Below are positions 22,103 through 33,292 of a stretch of DNA of 64,000 nt, piece after piece. A model generated the notes under the pieces. That model did not search any database and was not told the DNA's origin. It saw only the letters and a list, made by a program, of their open reading frames with translations. The stretch is from Escherichia phage AV115. How positions within the stretch are numbered: position 1 is the stretch's first letter; each line of letters opens with the position of its first letter. The DNA is taken from the sequence record OR352945.1. One strand, given 5' to 3'. The position numbers and the translations under genes are program-made.

Positions 22103-22110
22103 TATAAATA
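22103..22110 (+). promoter_or_regulatory. late promoter (TATAAATA) for gene 34
   Basis: Exact TATAAATA about 30 nt upstream of gene 34 ATG. Confidence 0.7.
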
Positions 22111-22140: not shown

Positions 22141-25100
22141 ATGGCCGACATCAAACGTAAGTTCAGAGCCGAAGACGGTCTGGACGCCGGTGGCGACAAG
22201 ATTGTTAACGTAGCATTAGCCGACCGTACAGTAGGTACTGATGGCGTAAACGTTGACTTCCTGGTACAAGAAAACACCGTTCAAGTATATGATTCTACGC
22301 GTGGATATAACAGAGGATTTGTTGTTCTTTATGACAACCGCTTATATCAAGCAATAAATGATATCGTGTCTCCTTCCGGGGCATTTAACCTTTTACAATG
22401 GCGTGCAGTTCGTACTGATGCACAATGGATAACCGTCGCTTCTGGGACTTATCAACTTTCTTCAGGCGAATCGATTTCTGTTAACACTGGTGCCGGCAAT
22501 GATATGGTTTTCACGTTGCCAAATACTCCGGTTGATGGTGATACTGTTGTTTTGGCTGATATTGGTGGAAGAACCGGGACAGTTAAAGTACAGATTAACG
22601 CGTCTGTGCAGAGTATTTTAAACTTTAGAGGTGAACAAGTTCGTACAGTTTTAATGACGCGCCCACGTTCACAACTATTGTTTGTGTTTAGTAATCGTTT
22701 GTGGCAGATGTATATTATCGATTATGGTAAAGAATCAATCACTGTTACACCTGCGACACCATATCAAGCACAAGCAAATGATTTTATCGTTCGTCGTTTT
22801 ACTAGTGCAGCACCAATCAACATTACACTTCCACGTAATGCTAACAATGGTGATATAATCAGCCTAGTCGATTTAGATAGATTAAACCCACTGTATCATA
22901 CAATTGTTAAAACATTTGATGATACAACGTCTATTGGTGAAGTCGGGACTCATATTGCCGAAGGCAGAAATGACTCTGACGCGTTTTTTGTTTTTGATGC
23001 CGCAAATAGTTTATGGCGTATATGGGAAGGCGACCAGAAATCGCGTCTTCGTATTATCCGTGCGGATTCAAATATTCGTCCAAATGAAGAAGTTCTTATT
23101 TTTGGCACAAATAACGCTACAGCCGGAACTATTAATCTTACGCTGCCTTCCGGAATTTTGAGTGGTGACACTGTTAAAATTTCAATGAACTACATGCGTA
23201 AAGGCCAAACAGTAAAAATTAAAGCTGCCGAAGGTGATACAATTGCTTCTTCTGTCGCATTACTTCAGTTCCCTAAACGTTCTGAATATCCACCTGATGC
23301 TCAATGGGTTTCTGTTACTGAACTAGAATTCAATGGCACTACTTCATATGTTCCTGTGTTAGAATTAGCGTATATCGAAGACACTGTTGCTGGTACACGT
23401 TATTGGGTTGTTCAACAAAACGTCCCTACAGTAGAACGTGTTGATGCTGGAACTGATGCTACACGAGCTCGTTTAGGTGTTATTGCTCTTGCTACTCAAG
23501 CGCAAGCAAATGTTGATTTAGAGAATACTCCAGCTAAAGAAGTGGCTATTACTCCGGAAACATTGGCAAATCGTACAGCAACTGAAGCTCGACGTGGTAT
23601 CGCTAAAATTGCTACAACAGCACAAGTTAACCAGAATTCCACAGCATCATTTGTGGACGATACTATTGTTACGCCTAAAAAACTAAATGAGCGTACAGCA
23701 ACTGAAACTCGTCGCGGTCTTGCTGAAATTGCTACTCAGACCGAAACCGATGCTGGTCTTGATGACACAACGATTATTACACCTAAGAAATTGCAGGCAC
23801 GTCAGGGTTCTGAAACACTATCGGGTATAGTTAAATATGTATCAACTACTTCTGCTACTCCTGCTGAAACTCGTGGGGCTGCAGGCACTAACGTTTATAA
23901 TAAAGACACAACTACGTTAACTATTTCGCCTAAAGCTCTCGATCAGTATAAAGCGACTTCTACTCAACAGGGTGCTACTATTCTGGCTCTTGAAAGTGAA
24001 GTAATTGCTGGTCAATCCCAAGCAGGTTATTCTCATGCTGTAGTAACTCCTGAAACACTACATAAGAAAACTTCTACTGATGGACGTATTGGTTTAATTG
24101 AAATTGCTACGCAAGCAGAAACTAATGCTGGGACTGATTATACACGTGCAGTAACGCCTAAGACGTTAAATGATAGGAAAGCTACGGAAGGATTATCCGG
24201 CATAGCCGAACTTGCTACGCAAGTTGAATTTGATACTGGAACTGATGATACTCGTATCTCGACTCCACTGAAAATTAAAACTCATTTTGATTCTTCTGAC
24301 CGTACCAGTGTTAATTCTGATTCCGGACTTATTGAAGAAGGAACCTTGTGGAACCATTATACTCTTGATATTTCTAAAGCAAATGAAACACAACGTGGTA
24401 CACTTCGCGTAGCGACCCAGGCAGAATCTAATGCAGGAACTTTAGATGATGTTCTTATTACTCCTAAAAAGCTTTTAGGGACTAAGTCCACTGAAACGTC
24501 TGAAGGCGTAATTAAGGTTGCTACTCAGGCTGAAACTGTAACAGGAACTTCTGCTAATACTGCTGTATCTCCTAAGAATTTAAAATGGATTGTCCAGAAA
24601 GAACCAACATGGGCTGCTACTACAGCAATTCGCGGATTCGTTAAAACTTCATCCGGTTCTATTACATTCGTTGGTAATGATACAGTCGGTTCTACCCAAG
24701 ATTTAGAACTGTATGAGAAAAATAGCTATGCAGTATCACCATATGAATTAAACCGTGTATTGGCAAATTATTTGCCGTTAAAAGCAAAAGCCGTAGATAG
24801 TAATTTATTGGATGGTCTAGATTCATCTCAGTTCATTCGTAGGGACATCGCCCAGTCAGTTAATGGTTCACTAACCTTAACCCAACAAACGAATCTGAGT
24901 GCCCCTCTTGTATCATCTAGTACTGCTACGTTTGGTGGTTCAGTTTCGGCAAATAGTACATTAACTATTTCTAACTCTGGAACAGCTACTCGTCTGATTT
25001 TTGAAAAAGGACCTCAGTCCGGAACAAATCCTGCTCAAACGATGACTATCAGAGTTTGGGGAAATGAATTTGGTGGTGGTTCAGATACAACACGTTCTAC

Positions 25101-26016
25101 TGTATTTGAAGTTGGTGATGAAACATCTAATCACTTTTATTCTCAACGTAATAAAGCTGGGAATATAACGTTTAGCATTAATGGTACTGTGATGCCAATA
25201 AATGTTAACGCTTCAGGCACGTTAAATGCGAATGGTGTAGCAACATTTGGTCGTTCAGTTACAGCCAATGGTGAATTCATTAGCAAGTCTGCAAATGCTT
25301 TTAGAGCAATAAACGGTGATTATGGATTCTTTATTCGTAATGATGCCTCTAATACCTATTTTTTGCTCACTGCAGCCGGTGATCAGACTGGTGGTTTTAA
25401 TGGATTACGCCCATTATTAATTAATAATCAATCCGGTCAGATTACAATTGGTGAAGGCTTAATCATCGCCAAAGGTGTTACTATAAATTCAGGCGGTTTG
25501 ACTGTTAACTCGAGAATTCGTTCTCAGGGTATTAAAACATCTGATTTATATACTCGTGCGCCAACATCTGATACTGTAGGATTCTGGTCAATCGATATTA
25601 ACGATTCAGCCACTTATAACCAGTTCCCAGGTTATTTTAAAATGGTTGAAAAAACTAATGAAGTGACTGGGCTTCCATACTTAGAACGCGGCGAAGAAGT
25701 TAAATCTCCTGGTACATTGACTCAGTTTGGTAATACACTTGATTCACTTTACCAAGATTGGATTACTTATCCAACAACTCCAGAAGCACGTACCACTCGC
25801 TGGACACGTACATGGCAGAAAACTAAAAATTCTTGGTCAAGTTTTGTTCAGGTATTTGATGGAGGTAACCCTCCTCAACCATCTGATATTGGTGCTTTAC
25901 CATCTGATAATGCTACAATGGGGAATCTTACTATTCGTGATTTCTTAAGGATTGGTAATGTCCGCATTATTCCAGACCCTGTGAATAAATCTGTTAAATT
26001 CGAGTGGATTGAATAA
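22141..26016 (+). CDS. 34: long tail fibre proximal subunit gp34
   Basis: 1291 aa; late promoter upstream; internal repeats ending in ATQAE..AG. Confidence 0.95.
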   Translation: MADIKRKFRAEDGLDAGGDKIVNVALADRTVGTDGVNVDFLVQENTVQVYDSTRGYNRGFVVLYDNRLYQAINDIVSPSGAFNLLQWRAVRTDAQWITVASGTYQLSSGESISVNTGAGNDMVFTLPNTPVDGDTVVLADIGGRTGTVKVQINASVQSILNFRGEQVRTVLMTRPRSQLLFVFSNRLWQMYIIDYGKESITVTPATPYQAQANDFIVRRFTSAAPINITLPRNANNGDIISLVDLDRLNPLYHTIVKTFDDTTSIGEVGTHIAEGRNDSDAFFVFDAANSLWRIWEGDQKSRLRIIRADSNIRPNEEVLIFGTNNATAGTINLTLPSGILSGDTVKISMNYMRKGQTVKIKAAEGDTIASSVALLQFPKRSEYPPDAQWVSVTELEFNGTTSYVPVLELAYIEDTVAGTRYWVVQQNVPTVERVDAGTDATRARLGVIALATQAQANVDLENTPAKEVAITPETLANRTATEARRGIAKIATTAQVNQNSTASFVDDTIVTPKKLNERTATETRRGLAEIATQTETDAGLDDTTIITPKKLQARQGSETLSGIVKYVSTTSATPAETRGAAGTNVYNKDTTTLTISPKALDQYKATSTQQGATILALESEVIAGQSQAGYSHAVVTPETLHKKTSTDGRIGLIEIATQAETNAGTDYTRAVTPKTLNDRKATEGLSGIAELATQVEFDTGTDDTRISTPLKIKTHFDSSDRTSVNSDSGLIEEGTLWNHYTLDISKANETQRGTLRVATQAESNAGTLDDVLITPKKLLGTKSTETSEGVIKVATQAETVTGTSANTAVSPKNLKWIVQKEPTWAATTAIRGFVKTSSGSITFVGNDTVGSTQDLELYEKNSYAVSPYELNRVLANYLPLKAKAVDSNLLDGLDSSQFIRRDIAQSVNGSLTLTQQTNLSAPLVSSSTATFGGSVSANSTLTISNSGTATRLIFEKGPQSGTNPAQTMTIRVWGNEFGGGSDTTRSTVFEVGDETSNHFYSQRNKAGNITFSINGTVMPINVNASGTLNANGVATFGRSVTANGEFISKSANAFRAINGDYGFFIRNDASNTYFLLTAAGDQTGGFNGLRPLLINNQSGQITIGEGLIIAKGVTINSGGLTVNSRIRSQGIKTSDLYTRAPTSDTVGFWSIDINDSATYNQFPGYFKMVEKTNEVTGLPYLERGEEVKSPGTLTQFGNTLDSLYQDWITYPTTPEARTTRWTRTWQKTKNSWSSFVQVFDGGNPPQPSDIGALPSDNATMGNLTIRDFLRIGNVRIIPDPVNKSVKFEWIE
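23460..24600 (+). repeat. tandem degenerate coding repeats within gp34 (about 7 copies of a roughly 40-aa unit)
   Basis: Recurring ...T.E.RRG.A.IAT.A...AG... units in the translated sequence. Confidence 0.5.
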
Positions 26017-26024
26017 GAGGTATT

Positions 26025-27152
26025 ATGGAAAAATTTATGGCTAAGTTTGGACAAGGATACGTCCAAACGCCATTTTTATCGGAAAGCAATTCAGTACGAT
26101 TTAAATTAAGCATAGCGGGCTCTTGCCCGCTATCAACATCTCCTGCTTATATTAAGTTCCAGGATAATCCACTTGGTTCCCAGGTTTTTTCCGTTGGATT
26201 AAACGTTCGTGTAATAAATCCTACAACAGGTGCAGTAGTTGAATCTAAGTCATATAATTTCTCTACTGAAAACGACGCCACGTCAAGTGCATTTGTTACT
26301 TACATGGATACATATGCTTCAAATTTTATATTTGCTCTTGTTACTAACGCTAAAACAAACTTTCCTCCTGAAGTTCTCGCATGGTTTACCAAAGCTGGGA
26401 GTTCTGCTATTCCATTAGCTCAACAAGTTTTAAATATAGTGGACATTTCTTATTCTGCATTTTATATTTCTGGTAAGAACGCTATAGCACTAGAACATAT
26501 TAAGTATAGTAATAAGAAAACTTCAACCGACTATAGTACACCACTTGATGTTGTGTACGACACTATCGATGATATTGGTGCTACCGGCTTCCCTAGTCGT
26601 ACGTACGAATCGACAGACACATTTTTATCTGCTGTTGGAGGTACTAATAACGAAATTAAAAGGATGCCTACAACATCCCTTATTACACCTCTCGCTGGGT
26701 ATAAATTGAAGCCTGGAGATTTCCTTTATATGAAATTCCAACTAATGGCCGATGCTGATTTGTTAGCACAAGGGACGACACGACTCTCTATTCGTTTCTT
26801 TAAATCTCCTTCTACTTCACCTATTTCATTTAAGGATATAAACTTTGATGGGGCTGCAGGTGAATGGAAGATATATGAAGACTACATAGAAATTCCTGCT
26901 GGTGCTGACGGGTTCACGATTTATTGTTATCGTACAGCTCCAGTCGGGCAAGGTGGATTAAGAAACGTTATATTCACTGAAGTATCATGTAATGGAAGCG
27001 TTTCAAAACCTGCTGAGTTTGGTATAAATGGTATTCGTGTAAATTATGTTTCAGAATCTTTAAGTGCCCCAGACATAATGACATTACCTACTCAATCTTC
27101 AACTGATACCGGTAAGGTATTTGGACAAGAATTTAAAGAAGCATCAGAATAA
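26025..27152 (+). CDS. 35: long tail fibre hinge protein gp35
   Basis: 375 aa; matches recalled T4 gp35. Confidence 0.85.
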   Translation: MEKFMAKFGQGYVQTPFLSESNSVRFKLSIAGSCPLSTSPAYIKFQDNPLGSQVFSVGLNVRVINPTTGAVVESKSYNFSTENDATSSAFVTYMDTYASNFIFALVTNAKTNFPPEVLAWFTKAGSSAIPLAQQVLNIVDISYSAFYISGKNAIALEHIKYSNKKTSTDYSTPLDVVYDTIDDIGATGFPSRTYESTDTFLSAVGGTNNEIKRMPTTSLITPLAGYKLKPGDFLYMKFQLMADADLLAQGTTRLSIRFFKSPSTSPISFKDINFDGAAGEWKIYEDYIEIPAGADGFTIYCYRTAPVGQGGLRNVIFTEVSCNGSVSKPAEFGINGIRVNYVSESLSAPDIMTLPTQSSTDTGKVFGQEFKEASE

Positions 27153-27182: not shown

Positions 27183-27190
27183 TATAAATA
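27183..27190 (+). promoter_or_regulatory. late promoter (TATAAATA) for gene 36
   Basis: Exact TATAAATA 25 nt upstream of gene 36 ATG, just after gene 35 terminator. Confidence 0.7.
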
Positions 27191-27214: not shown

Positions 27215-27877
27215 ATGGCCGATTTAAAAGCTGGTAGTACAACTGGCGGTGCCGTTATATGGCATCAAGGTAATTTCCCTTTAATGCCAGCAGGTGATGA
27301 CGTCCTGTATAAAACGTTTAAACTCTATTCAGAATATAATAAACCACAAGCTGCTGATAATGATTTCGTTTCTAAAGCTAATGGTGGTACTTACGCTGCA
27401 ACTGTTCGATTTAACGGAGGCGTACATGTTCCTACTGTAGGTAGTAGTCAACAGTGTGGTGTTTATCCAGGTAACGGTGATGCAGCTACTTTTGATATGG
27501 CAAATATTGACATCGTTTCGTGGAATGGTATTGGTTTTAAGTCATCACAAGGTTCAGCAGACCGAACTGTTGTTATTAACGCTCGTAATGGTGATATTAG
27601 TACAAAAGGCGTTGTGACAGCAGTAGGTCAAGTAAGAAGCGATGCGACTTCTCCTATAGCAGCGAATGATCTCACAAGAAAAGATTATGTTGATGGACGA
27701 ATAAATATTGTTACGGATAACGCAAATTCCCGTGTATTGCGTAAAGGCGATACCATGATTGGTACTTTAACAGCACCAAACTTTTTCTCACAGAATCCGG
27801 CGTCTGAGGCTAATCATGTTCCTCGTTTCGACCAGATTGTAATTAAAGATTCTGTTCAAGATTTCGGCTATTATTAA
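27215..27877 (+). CDS. 36: long tail fibre distal connector gp36
   Basis: 220 aa; position and T4 length; TATAAATA late promoter upstream. Confidence 0.85.
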   Translation: MADLKAGSTTGGAVIWHQGNFPLMPAGDDVLYKTFKLYSEYNKPQAADNDFVSKANGGTYAATVRFNGGVHVPTVGSSQQCGVYPGNGDAATFDMANIDIVSWNGIGFKSSQGSADRTVVINARNGDISTKGVVTAVGQVRSDATSPIAANDLTRKDYVDGRINIVTDNANSRVLRKGDTMIGTLTAPNFFSQNPASEANHVPRFDQIVIKDSVQDFGYY

Positions 27878-27885
27878 GAGGACTT

Positions 27886-30800
27886 ATGGCTACATTAAAA
27901 CAGATACAATTTAAAAGAAGCAAAGTAGCAGGAGTTAATCCTACTGCAGCACAATTAGCCGAAGGCGAATTAGCGATAAACTTAAAAGATCGAACTCTTT
28001 TTACTAAAGATGACCTCGGTAATATTATTAGCCTAGGCTTTGCTAAGGGTGGGGATATTAACGGTAATGTAACTCAAACTGGCGATTATTTACAAAACGG
28101 CACGTATAATCTCAATGGAAATCAGTTTGTTTACGCAGGAAAATACATTGAATTTTTACCTAAAACCACTGGAAATGGCGCTTGGGCTAACCAACATTCG
28201 AATAAAGCCCCTATCTTTACAGATTTAAGTTCAACTACTTCTGTTTCAGAATACCATCCACTGATTAAACAACGTTATAAAGATGGAACTTTTTCTGCTG
28301 GTACATTAGTAAACGAAGGTAGTTTTAAATTCCATTATATTGATGAAACCGGGACTTCAAAATACTGGACTTTTAATCGAAACGGTAATTTTCAAGTTGA
28401 TTCCGGAAGTTTATTAGTATCTAATGGATATTTAGTTACTCAAAGTAATATTGAAACTAAAGCTGGTTCTTTAATTGGTCCTAAAGTTATTACCAAAAAT
28501 ATCAATGTGAGTACTAAATCTTGGGACACTAATATTGATACTGCATATGATTTAGTTTCATTACCGACTTGGCACTATACTCCAACCGAAACAGATTTGG
28601 ATACTAATGGTATAAACTACCTTCGTAAATTCCGCGGACATGTTTCTTCTGCTATTTTCCATGAAGTTGCTGATGCTCGTTCAGGTAAACCACAGAATAT
28701 TTCGTATTGGACGGGACGTAATGCTGAAGTTTATCAATGGTCTTATACCACAGACGGGCGTATGTCTGTTGCTAATTCGATAGGTATAGGTCTTGCTGAT
28801 GTTGGTGACCAAGGACGTTATCCATTGGTTTCGTTTGGTAAAGGTATTGCAATTGGTGACAATGATACTGGTATTAAATGGGTTCGTGACGGCGTTATTG
28901 ATTTGATTGCTAACGGTGTTTCGACCGGTACAATAAACAGTACTGGTGTTAATAGTACAAAGAAATTAACAGTTGGGTATAGCCGTGATTCTGGATCTAC
29001 TTGGGATTATCCGAATACCAACCAGGCAATGTTCAGCGCTAGAACAGAAGTTGATGGTAATAATAACGGTGATGGTCAAACTCACATTGGTTATAGTTCT
29101 AATGCTAAGATGTATCATTATTTCCGTGGCGCTGGCCGCATGGCCATCAGCATGGGTGAAGGTCTTATTGTCGAACCAGGAATTCTTGATATTAAAACCG
29201 GTTCAAATTCGTTAAATTTGCGTGCTGATGGTACCATCGCTTCTGTTCAAACGTTAAAACTTAATAATGGATTATATTTTAATGGTGATGGAACTAATGC
29301 TTCTCTAATTTTTAAAGCAGCTTCAGGTATTGATGGTACTAAGCAAATTTTGTGGGAAGGCGGTACTCGTGCAGGTCAGAACAAAAGTTATGTGACCGTG
29401 AAAGCATGGGGTAACTCATTTAATGCTACTGGTGATAAAGCTCGAGAAACCGTATTTGAGGTTTCTGATGGCCAAGGTTATTATTTCTATTCTCAACGCG
29501 TAGCTCCGACCGGTTCTGAAACTACAGGCCCTGTTGTAACTCAGTTCAATGGACAGGTTAATGCTAGAGGAAGCTTAATAACCGACGGAAGTCTTAGAGT
29601 TAACGGATTAAGCACTCTAGTTGGCAACGTTACAATGAATAATGGATTGTTTGTTCAAGGCGGTTCTTCTATTACTGGACAAGTTAAAATTGGTGGAACA
29701 GCTGATGCATTAAGAATTTGGAATGCTGAATACGGTGCTATTTTCCGTCGTTCTGAAGATAAGCTTTATATTATTCCAACTCCGCAGAATGCTGGTGAAT
29801 CAGGTGGTATTTCTAATTTACGTCCGTTCTATATTGCATTAAGTAATGGTAAAGTTTCTATGGATCATGATGTAGATATCGGCGGCGGCAGATTTAAAGT
29901 AGAAGCTGCTGGAACTACGGCTGGTCAACGCATAACAGTAAATATGGCATCAGATGCTATTAGAATAAATGCTCCAACACAAGAGTCTTCTAACTTCATT
30001 CAAGGACGTAAAGCAGATGTTCCGAAATGGTATTTAGGTATTGGCGACGGCGGCAACGTCGTTCGTATGCACAGTTACACATATTCACATGGTATTGCAT
30101 TAAACTCTGATTCTGTCGATATTACTAAACCTCTTAAAGTCGGAAATGCCCAACTAGGAACCGATGGCAATATCACGGGCGGTTCAGGAAACTTTGCTAA
30201 CTTGAATACAACTTTAAACCGTAAAGTGAATTCTGGTTTTATTACTTATGGAGCAACTGCAGGTTGGTACAAGTTTGCAACAGTAACAATGCCTCAAGCT
30301 ACATCAACCGTTTCAATTACAGTCACTGGCGGAAATGGATCTAATTCTGGATCATTTAATCAGTGCGCAATTTCTGAAATTGTTCTTCGTACAGGAAACA
30401 ATACTCCTAAAGGATTAAATGCTGTTCTATATAGAAGAGGACTAAATTCATTTAGAGATATTGCTTGGGTTAATACATCTGGCGATACATATGACATTTA
30501 TGTCAATATGGGAACATATGCTAATCAGTTAATATTCAATTACAGTTCTGTTGATAATGCAACAGTTCAAATAATTGGCGCATTTAGCTCAGCTCAAAGT
30601 CCTGTTGATACATTACCGGAAACAAATGTTAAAGGACAGGTAGCAGATGTATTGACTAACTTAGTTGATTCAGGAAAAACAAAGCGTTTTGTTGCTGAAT
30701 CTGAAATAGCTGTTAATAATCAAACTGGATTACGTATTACGAGTAATGGTGATAAATCTGGTTCAAATTCAGTATTATTTAGAAATGACGGTGGAAGCTT

Positions 30801-31779
30801 CTATATTTTACTGACCGACAAAAACTCTTCAGACGGCGATAATAAAGCAACTGAAGGTGGTTGGAATGGAAAACGACCATTTTCAATTGATATGACTGCT
30901 GGTACTGTTCGTCTTGGCGAAAATACTTCTTTTGGTAAAGATGTTACTATTGATGGAAGCATTAATTCACGAGTTAAAGTTGTCGGACAGTGGAGTGTTA
31001 GCTTTTCTGATATTTCAGATGTGACTCGTGACCGTTCTGCATTTTTAGTGAATACGGGTGGCATTTCCAAGACAAGTCAATCTTATTACCCGCTATTTTC
31101 TGGATACAGTTTTTTAACTGACGCAGGTTATCGCCAATCGTTTGAATTTGGATGGTTAGGTGTTTCTGGTACTTGGCGTCAAGGCATTATTCGCATGCGT
31201 GGTGACAACCCATCGGGGCAACAGGCTCGTTGGACTTTTGATATGGACGGAACATTTTATGCTCCTATACTATCATGCGGATCTGCGAGAGCATTCGGTG
31301 TCAATACAACAAATGGATGGGGTGGTAACTCAATTGCGATAGGTGATAGTGATACTGGTTTTAGACAAGTAGGCGATGGGCTTTTAGAAACATGGGCAAA
31401 CAACGTTAAGGTCGTTCGTTATACTTCAAGTGAAGTTTATTCCGAGAAAAACGTCAACGCTCCTAACGTTTATATTCGTTCTGATATTCGTTTGAAATCT
31501 AATTTCAAGCCTATTGAAAACGCGCTCGAAAAGGTTGAACAACTTGATGGTTTAATCTATGACAAAGCTGAATATATAGGCGGTGAACCTGTCCAAACAG
31601 AAGCGGGTATTGTGGCTCAAACACTGCAAGATGTTTTACCAGAAGCAGTTCGTGAAGTTGAAGATATTAAGGGTAATAAAATACTCACTGTTTCTTCTCA
31701 ATCCCAGATTGCTCTTCTGGTTGAAGCTGTGAAAACACTTTCTTCTCGTGTAAAAGAACTTGAATCTAAACTTATGTAA
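27886..31779 (+). CDS. 37: long tail fibre distal subunit gp37 (T2-type, with C-terminal chaperone-like module)
   Basis: 1297 aa; C-terminal roughly 100 aa resemble intramolecular chaperone domains. Confidence 0.9.
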   Translation: MATLKQIQFKRSKVAGVNPTAAQLAEGELAINLKDRTLFTKDDLGNIISLGFAKGGDINGNVTQTGDYLQNGTYNLNGNQFVYAGKYIEFLPKTTGNGAWANQHSNKAPIFTDLSSTTSVSEYHPLIKQRYKDGTFSAGTLVNEGSFKFHYIDETGTSKYWTFNRNGNFQVDSGSLLVSNGYLVTQSNIETKAGSLIGPKVITKNINVSTKSWDTNIDTAYDLVSLPTWHYTPTETDLDTNGINYLRKFRGHVSSAIFHEVADARSGKPQNISYWTGRNAEVYQWSYTTDGRMSVANSIGIGLADVGDQGRYPLVSFGKGIAIGDNDTGIKWVRDGVIDLIANGVSTGTINSTGVNSTKKLTVGYSRDSGSTWDYPNTNQAMFSARTEVDGNNNGDGQTHIGYSSNAKMYHYFRGAGRMAISMGEGLIVEPGILDIKTGSNSLNLRADGTIASVQTLKLNNGLYFNGDGTNASLIFKAASGIDGTKQILWEGGTRAGQNKSYVTVKAWGNSFNATGDKARETVFEVSDGQGYYFYSQRVAPTGSETTGPVVTQFNGQVNARGSLITDGSLRVNGLSTLVGNVTMNNGLFVQGGSSITGQVKIGGTADALRIWNAEYGAIFRRSEDKLYIIPTPQNAGESGGISNLRPFYIALSNGKVSMDHDVDIGGGRFKVEAAGTTAGQRITVNMASDAIRINAPTQESSNFIQGRKADVPKWYLGIGDGGNVVRMHSYTYSHGIALNSDSVDITKPLKVGNAQLGTDGNITGGSGNFANLNTTLNRKVNSGFITYGATAGWYKFATVTMPQATSTVSITVTGGNGSNSGSFNQCAISEIVLRTGNNTPKGLNAVLYRRGLNSFRDIAWVNTSGDTYDIYVNMGTYANQLIFNYSSVDNATVQIIGAFSSAQSPVDTLPETNVKGQVADVLTNLVDSGKTKRFVAESEIAVNNQTGLRITSNGDKSGSNSVLFRNDGGSFYILLTDKNSSDGDNKATEGGWNGKRPFSIDMTAGTVRLGENTSFGKDVTIDGSINSRVKVVGQWSVSFSDISDVTRDRSAFLVNTGGISKTSQSYYPLFSGYSFLTDAGYRQSFEFGWLGVSGTWRQGIIRMRGDNPSGQQARWTFDMDGTFYAPILSCGSARAFGVNTTNGWGGNSIAIGDSDTGFRQVGDGLLETWANNVKVVRYTSSEVYSEKNVNAPNVYIRSDIRLKSNFKPIENALEKVEQLDGLIYDKAEYIGGEPVQTEAGIVAQTLQDVLPEAVREVEDIKGNKILTVSSQSQIALLVEAVKTLSSRVKELESKLM

Positions 31780-31780
31780 A

Positions 31781-31798
31781 AGAGGGCTTCGGCCCTCT
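31781..31798 (+). terminator. intergenic UUCG hairpin between genes 37 and 38
   Basis: AGAGGGC-UUCG-GCCCUCU on plus transcript directly before gene 38 RBS. Confidence 0.4.
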
Positions 31799-31809
31799 AA
31801 GGATTTTTA

Positions 31810-32601
31810 ATGGCAATTGTAGGTGTTCCTGGCTGGATTGGTGAATCTGCCGTGAATGAAACTGGACAACGTTGGATGGATGCTGCAATGAAAGCAGTTC
31901 GTGTTTCAGTTCCTGGTTGGATGAGTTCAATGGCTGGGCAATCTAAAGAGATTCATTATAGCATTGGTGCTAGCAATTCTTACAATAAAGACACACTAAT
32001 AAACTGGATAAAAGCCCAAGGAAGCACTCCTGTTGTTATTACTATTACAGGAAATATTGTTTCTCAATCTACCGGTGTTCCATGCTTAGATTTTCCTAGC
32101 TCATTAACTAATGCATATGTTACCTTAAATATTAATAGTGGTGTTCATGTATTAGGTCGGGGAGGAAATGGCGGAAGTAACTCTGCTGGCGGAGCAGGAG
32201 GAACTGCAATAAATAACGGAATTGGAACTCGTTTAAGAATAAACAATAATGGTATTATTGGTGGCGGCGGAGGTGGCGGCGCTGGTGCTAGATACCATCC
32301 TTTCCCTCAAATGGATATGATATTTGGTGGCGGCGGAGGTCGTCCATTTGGCGCAGCTGGCGCAGCAGGAGGTGGCGCAGCGGCAGCATCCGCTGGTACA
32401 ATTTCTGCTCCTGGTAAAGGTACTGTTTCTGGGGTTCACTATGGAGGAAATGGTGGAGATTTGGGAGCTGCTGGCAAATCTTCATATATTCAAGGTGGTA
32501 CTGGAGGAACTGTTCACTCGGGTGGTGCAGCAGGTAAAGCTGTTACTGGTAATGCTCCAACTTGGACTAAAGTTGGTACAATATACGGTTCAAGAGTATA
32601 A
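31810..32601 (+). CDS. 38: tail fibre adhesin gp38 (T2-type, glycine-rich)
   Basis: 263 aa; MAIVGVPGWIGESAVNETGQRWM N-terminus and poly-Gly islands typical of T2-like gp38. Confidence 0.85.
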   Translation: MAIVGVPGWIGESAVNETGQRWMDAAMKAVRVSVPGWMSSMAGQSKEIHYSIGASNSYNKDTLINWIKAQGSTPVVITITGNIVSQSTGVPCLDFPSSLTNAYVTLNINSGVHVLGRGGNGGSNSAGGAGGTAINNGIGTRLRINNNGIIGGGGGGGAGARYHPFPQMDMIFGGGGGRPFGAAGAAGGGAAAASAGTISAPGKGTVSGVHYGGNGGDLGAAGKSSYIQGGTGGTVHSGGAAGKAVTGNAPTWTKVGTIYGSRV

Positions 32602-32606
32602 TTTTG

Positions 32607-32614
32607 AATAAATA
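32607..32614 (+). promoter_or_regulatory. possible late promoter variant (AATAAATA) for holin t
   Basis: One-mismatch late box 18 nt upstream of t start. Confidence 0.3.
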
Positions 32615-32632: not shown

Positions 32633-33292
32633 ATGGCAACACCAAAAGTGGCATTTTCACCTAGTGATATTCTATTTGGGTTGCTAGATCGTATTTTCAA
32701 AGATAACGCTACTGGAAAGGTTTTAATGTCCCGAGTAGCGGTAATTATTCTTTTGTTCCTAATGGCACTAATATGGTACAAAGGAAGTATTTTGCTGGAT
32801 TATTATGTAAGAGCTAAGTATGATACTTATACTGAAATAATCCAAAAAGAACGAGCTTTACGTTTTGAATCTGCGGCTCTAGAACAACTGCAAATAGTTC
32901 ATATCTCATCTGGTGCAGATTTTAGTGCTGTGTATTCTTTCAGACCTAAAAACTTAAATTATTTTGTCGACCTTATAGCTTATGAAGGCAAACTACCTAG
33001 CACAATTTCTGAAAAGTCCCTTGGCGGATTCCCGGTGGATAAAACGGCCAATGAATATATAATTCATTTAAGTGGCCGTCATTTCTTATCTAAATCAGAA
33101 TTTGCATTTTTGCCTACAAAATCTAAGACTGCCGAACTTTCTTATATGTATAGTTGTCCATACTTTAATTTGGATAACATCTATGCTGGAACTGTGACGA
33201 TGTATTGGTATAAGGGGAGTAATATACTTGAGGAAGATCGCTTAGCGGCTATATGCAACCAAGCGATCCGAATACTAGGAAGGGCTAAATAA
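32633..33292 (+). CDS. t: holin T
   Basis: 219 aa; near-identical to recalled T4 holin; one N-terminal TM segment. Confidence 0.9.
   Translation: MATPKVAFSPSDILFGLLDRIFKDNATGKVLMSRVAVIILLFLMALIWYKGSILLDYYVRAKYDTYTEIIQKERALRFESAALEQLQIVHISSGADFSAVYSFRPKNLNYFVDLIAYEGKLPSTISEKSLGGFPVDKTANEYIIHLSGRHFLSKSEFAFLPTKSKTAELSYMYSCPYFNLDNIYAGTVTMYWYKGSNILEEDRLAAICNQAIRILGRAK

Follow-up and report, generated by a model that had tools for sequence, protein, structure and literature searches.

Escherichia phage AV115 (OR352945.1) carries genes 37 and 38 (g37 and g38) of the long tail fibre within the 64,000-nucleotide stretch of its DNA analysed here, hereafter called the window. In this study, we found that these genes very probably specify the distal half of an adhesin-capped T-even long tail fibre of the kind known from T2, T6 and S16, borne here by a Mosigvirus, in which a chaperone-cleaved gp37 is capped by a Tsx-binding gp38. 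The analysis shows directly how the genes are built, which domains and catalytic residues they encode, what folds are predicted, how far the sequences match those of characterised phages, and that gene 37 is recombinant; cleavage, docking of one gp38 on three gp37 chains, and Tsx binding are what we infer by homology for the phage itself. No evidence contradicting this explanation was found. The arrangement of gp37 and gp38 is a textbook one (T2, T6, S16), and an identical adhesin has already been characterised. The sole new item is a recombinant gp37 allele.

An original prediction, made from the sequence alone, had placed a gp37 of 1297 amino acids (aa) and a gp38 of 263 aa in this locus, and their open reading frame (ORF) coordinates proved exact to the base (Table 1). 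It had also proposed that gp37 ends in a chaperone-type segment of about 100 aa. The C-terminus of gp37 matches Peptidase_S74 (PF13884) at residues 1199-1256 (E = 5.7e-14; 52.6 bits, where the cut-off is 22), over positions 1-58 of the 58 in the profile, and the chaperone domain runs on to the gp37 stop codon, i.e. to the extreme C-terminus. The conserved serine is Ser1199, within ...NVNAPNVYIR-SDIRLKSNFKPIENAL..., and the C-terminal fragment left is 99 aa long. Ser1199, Asp1200, Leu1203 and Lys1204 are invariant in the aligned gp37 homologues (26 of 26), and the Ser-x4-Lys spacing is the same as in endoNF S911/K916 and MyRF S587/K592, which are catalytic Ser-Lys dyads (PMC8326128). Two other Pfam domains lie upstream, Gp34_trimer (residues 514-650) and gp37_trimer (residues 691-765), and these domains, along with the likeness to the beta-helical tip of S16, support the view that gp37 is a trimeric fibre. 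As a Pfam control, the gp37 proteins of T2 and T6 were found to have S74, whereas T4 gp37 has Collar and Phage_fiber in its place.

Structures were predicted with AlphaFold2 (AF2) as monomers, for gp37 residues 1101-1297 and for gp38. The homologue set for the gp37 fragment comprised 29 proteins, mostly short, and was adequate for the chaperone domain, whose residues 1201-1297 were modelled with a predicted local distance difference test (pLDDT) score of 84-96 and a terminal helix at model residues 171-196. Foldseek comparison of this fragment with the PDB returned the MyRF ICA (7dc3, E = 6e-6), the endoNF chaperone (3gw6), the GA-1 chaperone (3gud) and the S16 tip (6f45), and a profile search with the gp37 alignment returned S16 gp37 (6f45_A, 5e-19), MyRF (4e-10) and GA-1 (7e-4). 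The chaperone/protease fold, on which the original prediction had staked its reading of the gp37 C-terminus, is upheld by the structure prediction, the Foldseek matches and the invariant Ser1199/Lys1204, and this C-terminus has each of the traits defining the S74 intramolecular chaperones that could be tested, among them the family fold of beta-hairpins and a long C-terminal helix, the helix that forms a trimeric coiled coil in this family.

The fate of such a C-terminus is known from relatives. S16 gp37 undergoes auto-cleavage at DLNVS^SDRRIKK, by which a 113-aa chaperone is lost and the gp38 docking face is exposed (PMC7917993, which also describes an alignment of S16 and fPS), and in T2 and T6 gp37 is cut proteolytically and then capped by gp38 (PMC3157838). 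The counterpart of the S16 cleavage motif in the window gp37 is NVYIR^SDIRLKS. On the strength of these precedents, and because the chaperone is about 86-93% identical to that of T2, gp37 would very likely cleave itself between Arg1198 and Ser1199, with Ser1199/Lys1204 as the dyad. The beta-rich tip that precedes the cleavage site is predicted to form the docking face for gp38 after cleavage.

Unlike the gp38 chaperone of T4, the window gp38 belongs to the adhesins. It matches Pfam GP38 (PF05268; 234.4 bits, E = 1.8e-69) and Gp38_N (PF21721; 64.7 bits, E = 7e-18), each with a cut-off of 25, and PHROG 2056 covers its full length (1.8e-101); a sequence search of the PDB returned S16 gp38 (6f45_D, E = 3.7e-48) and PP01 gp38 (9v85, E = 8.5e-32). 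The AF2 model, built like the alignment on 90 homologues, has a pLDDT of 93 and a predicted template modelling (pTM) score of 0.87, with helices at residues 10-18, 23-29 and 38-41, and Foldseek superposes it on 6f45_D (E = 1.5e-23, template modelling (TM) scores 0.77/0.82) and on 9v85 (E = 3e-19). BLASTP, in contrast, revealed no similarity to the T4 gp38 chaperone (E = 13), which falls in PHROG 105, a group that does not include the window gp38. Thus gp38 has all the testable traits of the T2/T6/S16-type adhesin family and falls outside the T4 chaperone family, as had been anticipated.

Three parts can be distinguished in gp38: an attachment domain (aa 1-46, with W9, W22 and W37), a beta-helix, and a polyglycine sandwich with hypervariable loops (aa ~116-237). 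The N-terminus had been described as conserved, and residues 1-46 are indeed 96% identical to T2. Three tryptophans of S16 gp38 act as prongs into gp37 (PMC6851490); among the 90 homologues of the window gp38, the corresponding W9 is found in 84 and W22 in 83. Glycine makes up 23% of gp38 and 34% of residues 116-263, with runs at G151-157 and G173-177. The poly-glycine islands flanking variable segments, also part of the original prediction, are borne out by the column entropy over the 90 homologues, which is 0.18-0.9 bits in the glycine motifs (including G151-A158 and GGGGGRPFG at 173-181) versus 1.8-2.6 bits in the intervening segments, and indels concentrate in or beside the variable segments, after positions 122, 128, 186, 207 and 226. 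Neither this alternation of glycine motifs and hypervariable segments nor the S74 and gp38 family matches are due to chance. In public records, near-identical adhesin genes (AV114, RB18, teqsoen, SA20RB) are labelled 'tail assembly protein' or 'distal long tail fiber assembly catalyst'; these 'assembly' labels are a T4-derived mis-annotation of adhesin-type gp38.

In the assembly pathway that we propose, gp37 would be made as a 1297-aa precursor whose C-terminal 99 residues, acting as an intramolecular chaperone, would set three chains in register and nucleate the trimeric beta-helical fibre. Once the trimer had formed, the Ser1199/Lys1204 dyad would cut the Arg1198/Ser1199 bond and the chaperone would depart, exposing a flat trimeric gp37 tip that ends in ...NVYIR. 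A single gp38 would dock on this tip via its N-terminal three-helix attachment domain, with Trp9, Trp22 and Trp37. Packed as polyglycine-II helices, the glycine motifs of gp38 would build a rigid sandwich, while the hypervariable segments would be the distal loops that bind an outer-membrane protein of the host, predicted to be Tsx.

The prediction of Tsx, a nucleoside channel, as the receptor derives from gp38 itself. Among the candidates OmpA, OmpC, OmpF, FadL and Tsx, the choice narrows to Tsx because gp38 is 100% identical at the protein level to that of AV114, as it is to that of AV109, and AV114 was found to be Tsx-dependent by the use of deletion mutants (PMC10844046). Furthermore, gp38 is 96-99% identical to many Tequatrovirus gp38 proteins, including those of Phaginator, T-01, TadeuszReichstein (Bas43), RB18, Kha5h, Shfl2 and KIT06. 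KIT06, whose gp38 is 97% identical to the window gp38, fails to infect a tsx deletion mutant (PMC11274021). Compared with the classical phages, identity in the attachment domain is 96% with T2 and 65% with T6, whereas in the specificity region (aa 159-237) it is 27% with T2 and 51% with T6. The designation 'T2-type' in the original prediction therefore holds for the architecture and the attachment domain, but not for the loops and the predicted receptor, which are T6-like.

Identity to the Mosigvirus phages AV118, AV116, AV114 and AV109 is 98-99% both in the 22 kb preceding the fibre tip and in the 23 kb following it, and by this comparison the backbone is that of a Mosigvirus, not of a T2-like Tequatrovirus. 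GC content is about 37-40% around the locus. Despite the Mosigvirus backbone, it is in Tequatrovirus that the nearest relatives of the distal part of gp37 and the majority of gp38 relatives are found; judged from these relationships, the host-recognition module has been exchanged between genera. Modular shuffling has already been described for T-even fibre loci (PMC3157838; PMC12032242).

Sliding-window identity and mismatch positions were used to map the mosaic of gene 37 on DNA (Table 1). Its first part is that of AV114 up to a crossover interval just past the Pfam gp37_trimer region, bounded by the last mismatch to the Tequatrovirus vB_EcoM_FJ1 (FJ1) at 30168 and the first mismatch to AV114 at 30186. 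The segment that follows resembles FJ1, with drops in identity to 85-92% around 30531-30636 and 30886-31125, and over aa 1001-1120 it is merely 23-36% identical to AV114. After a short patch unlike either phage, the end of the chaperone and the whole of g38 are again those of AV114. Read in this way, gene 37 is a recombinant of at least three sources, running from AV114-like to FJ1-like, through a patch of other origin, and back to AV114-like. The flanks being 100% identical to AV114, the recombination may be recent. The exact gp37 sequence has no record in the assembly collection, and every segment of it is on record. Since FJ1 gp38 carries hypervariable segments different from those of the window gp38, the gp37 shaft/tip and gp38 have been exchanged independently, an outcome that fits the near-identity of the gp38 attachment domain across these phages.

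The swapped stretch is cleanly bounded and comprises the distal ~480 residues of gp37, namely shaft, docking tip and the first 40 chaperone residues, and the phage has kept its own Tsx-type gp38. We consider it improbable that this swap, with the adhesin untouched, alters host range or fibre mechanics (fibre length, O-antigen penetration, secondary lipopolysaccharide (LPS) contact). If it did, the distal shaft of gp37 would be a specificity module independent of gp38.

Different readings of the locus have to be considered. Were gp38 a T4-style assembly chaperone outside the virion, the C-terminus of gp37 would itself bind the receptor. Such a function is what the annotations of near-identical genes express, with labels carried over from T4, but the lack of similarity to T4 gp38, the different PHROGs, the placement of gp38 in Pfam adhesin families with an S16/PP01 adhesin fold, and a gp37 with S74 and without the Collar and Phage_fiber needle domains of T4 make it extremely unlikely. 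It is also very unlikely that the S74-like domain is a degenerate protease kept uncleaved as a structural cap. Cleavage is deduced here by homology, and inactivity is conceivable for certain S74-like domains of other proteins; however, the Ser-Lys dyad is intact, as is the SDxRLK motif around it, and both are invariant, the closely similar domain of T2 gp37 is reported to be cleaved (PMC3157838), and a retained chaperone would block the docking site of gp38 (PMC7917993).

Among these alternatives, the likeliest, albeit still with a small chance of being right, accepts the architecture and holds that the primary receptor is not Tsx, or not Tsx alone, but OmpA, OmpF/FadL or an LPS component, with the swapped gp37 or other fibre parts altering recognition. 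According to Trojet et al., it takes a few residue changes in the hypervariable segments to switch specificity between Tsx and OmpA or to broaden it (PMC3157838; RB18 is absent from that study), and AV108, with a related gp38, uses OmpA (PMC10844046). KIT06 also shows LPS-core and weak BtuB effects (PMC11274021), and the distal third of gp37 differs from AV114. On the other hand, every residue of gp38 is the same as in the Tsx-dependent AV114, and in this fibre design the receptor-contacting loops are on gp38, not on gp37 (PMC6851490; PMC12032242). As for the adhesin-capped, self-cleaving fibre that we favour, some limits apply. The model of the gp37 fragment is of low confidence over its first 50 residues (pLDDT below 50), and the models are of single chains, so that the gp37 trimer, the geometry of cleavage and the 3:1 interface of gp37 with gp38 lie outside them. 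Trp37 is less conserved than Trp9 and Trp22, being Trp in 54 and Tyr in 16 of the 90 homologues. In addition, the gp37 tip stems from an FJ1-like donor whose gp38 has other hypervariable segments; that gp37 and gp38 are compatible we infer from the common attachment domain, 93-96% identical over aa 1-46.

The genes surrounding g37 and g38 are in the order g34-g35-g36-g37-g38-t, the canonical long-tail-fibre cluster of T-even phages, with g38 directly 3' of the S74-bearing g37 and 5' of the holin gene t, and T2 and T6 are arranged alike. The late-promoter consensus TATAAATA, whose promoter role is taken from what is known of T4 late promoters, precedes g34 and g36, the layout expected of late fibre operons. 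On the + strand of the fibre locus it occurs only at 22103 and 27183, none lying ahead of g37 or g38, and across the window it is not enriched (5 seen versus 7.5 expected by chance). The copy at 27183 is likely to be the start of a g36-g37-g38 late transcript; these genes are probably co-transcribed, as no TATAAATA site precedes g37 or g38.

A C(UUCG)G hairpin follows the g37 stop codon (31777-31779) and precedes the ribosome-binding site of g38, AAGGA (31799-31803). It has a free energy of -13.4 kcal/mol (z -1.9) and is probably an mRNA-stabilising or translational-coupling element. T2, AV114 and FJ1 have the identical hairpin, and T4, Bas43 and T6 have close variants of it. Such elements have long been known from T4 intercistronic regions.

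Residues 58-129 of the hinge protein gp35 match Pfam PF15711 ILEI (interleukin-like EMT inducer / FAM3 fold) with 30.6 bits against a cut-off of 27; because gp35 of T4 (35.9 bits) and T2 (36.7 bits) match too, this is a general property of gp35 and not specific to the window. Within the Gly/Ala-rich coding region of g38, short ORFs (65-95 aa) occur in other frames, at 32233-32439 (-), 32288-32485 (-) and 32324-32611 (+). As the g38 frame is backed by the Pfam GP38 match, these ORFs are probably by-products of its GGN-rich (Gly/Ala-rich) coding and not genes. NCBIfam held no family for gp37, gp38 or gp35, and an Rfam scan of the whole window gave zero matches at the gathering threshold.

Table 1. 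Features of the AV115 tail-fibre locus (positions in the window)
Feature	Position	Strand	Evidence
Late-promoter consensus TATAAATA	22103..22110	+	Exact match; 31 nt upstream of g34 start codon
g34	22141..26016		ORF
g35, hinge protein gp35	26025..27152	+	ORF
Late-promoter consensus TATAAATA	27183..27190	+	Exact match; 25 nt upstream of g36 start codon
g36	27215..27877		ORF; Pfam Phage_T4_gp36
Gene 37, long tail fibre distal subunit precursor, 1297 aa	27886..31779	+	ORF; PHROG 1699 full length; Pfam
Segment A of gene 37, aa 1-761	27886..30168	+	100% nucleotide-identical to AV114 (2283 nt)
Left crossover interval, 17 nt, aa 762-767	30169..30185	+	Identical in both parental types
Segment B of gene 37, aa ~768-1242 (distal shaft, gp38-docking tip, chaperone start)	30186..31611	+	Mostly 98-100% identical to Tequatrovirus vB_EcoM_FJ1
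Predicted beta-rich gp37 tip, aa ~1153-1198, ending NVYIR	31342..31479	+	AF2 strands (model residues 52-86); Foldseek and profile (HMM) matches to 6f45
Intramolecular chaperone / Peptidase_S74 domain, Ser1199-Met1297, 99 aa	31480..31776	+	Pfam; invariant residues; AF2; Foldseek
Short patch unlike both AV114 and FJ1	31612..31702	+	Mismatch mapping
Chaperone end and whole g38	31703..32601	+	AV114 again, three synonymous differences
Intercistronic C(UUCG)G tetraloop hairpin, 7-bp stem	31781..31798	+	Folding energy; comparison with relatives
Gene 38, monomeric tail-fibre tip adhesin, 263 aa	31810..32601	+	ORF; Pfam; PDB search; AF2
Holin gene t	32633..33292		ORF; Pfam Phage_holin_T

These results allow a confident annotation of the locus as encoding a gp37 precursor, equipped with a self-cleaving chaperone, and a gp38 adhesin, not an 'assembly catalyst', which is of use in annotation and in the bookkeeping of phage therapy, and the receptor can be annotated as predicted Tsx. 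Gene 37, with one crossover narrowed to 17 nt, is a natural case in which sequence passed between genera, from Tequatrovirus to Mosigvirus, within a fibre gene. It exemplifies the modular shuffling by which T-even fibres are already known to evolve, without extending that model.

In comparison with known systems, the closest are AV114 and AV109 (Mosigvirus), which have the identical gp38 protein, with 3 synonymous nucleotide differences, and the same gene order. Gene 37 of AV114 is nucleotide-identical over the first 2283 nt and from 31703 onward, within a flanking genome of 98-99% identity. However, AV114 gp37 has 1257 aa instead of 1297; residues ~768-1240 have been replaced in the window gp37, and identity drops to 8-32% over aa 1001-1150. 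In FJ1, the C-terminal 508 aa of gp37 are 95% identical, with an identical tip before the cleavage site, whereas the N-terminal 760 aa are 14-80% identical, and FJ1 gp38, of 268 aa, is ~65% identical overall and 32% in the specificity region. T2 shares the architecture, S74 with an identical NVYIR^SDIRLKSNFKPIENAL motif, the 99-aa fragment, a chaperone 86-91% identical over aa 1201-1297, the intercistronic UUCG hairpin and the attachment domain. It differs in its gp37 (54% identical overall), in its gp38 (63%, and 27% in the specificity region) and in its use of FadL/OmpF (PMC8594841; PMC3157838), Tsx being predicted for the window phage. T6 also has an adhesin-type gp38, whose specificity region is the nearest among the classical types (51%), with the common motifs PFPQM...FGGGGGRPFGA and GTIS.PG.G.V.G, and by inference the Tsx receptor, but its attachment domain is 65% identical, and its gp37, of 994 aa, 32%. 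The solved structural prototypes are the S16 gp37 tip-gp38 complex (PDB 6F45) and PP01 gp38 (PDB 9V85), which have the gp38 fold and tryptophan prongs, with S16 adding the gp37 tip, chaperone and cleavage motif, although sequence identity is ~40%, both bind OmpC, and the S16 chaperone has 113 aa compared with 99 aa here (PMC7917993). Like other S74 chaperones (K1F endosialidase endoNF, T5 L-shaped fibre, GA-1 neck appendage, MyRF ICA), that of gp37 has the Pfam family, dyad spacing, predicted fold and C-terminal position after a trimeric beta-helix, but the part upstream is neither an enzyme nor a receptor-binding head: it is a fibre shaft onto which a separate adhesin fits. T4, in contrast, has a gp37 without S74, and its gp38 is an unrelated assembly chaperone.

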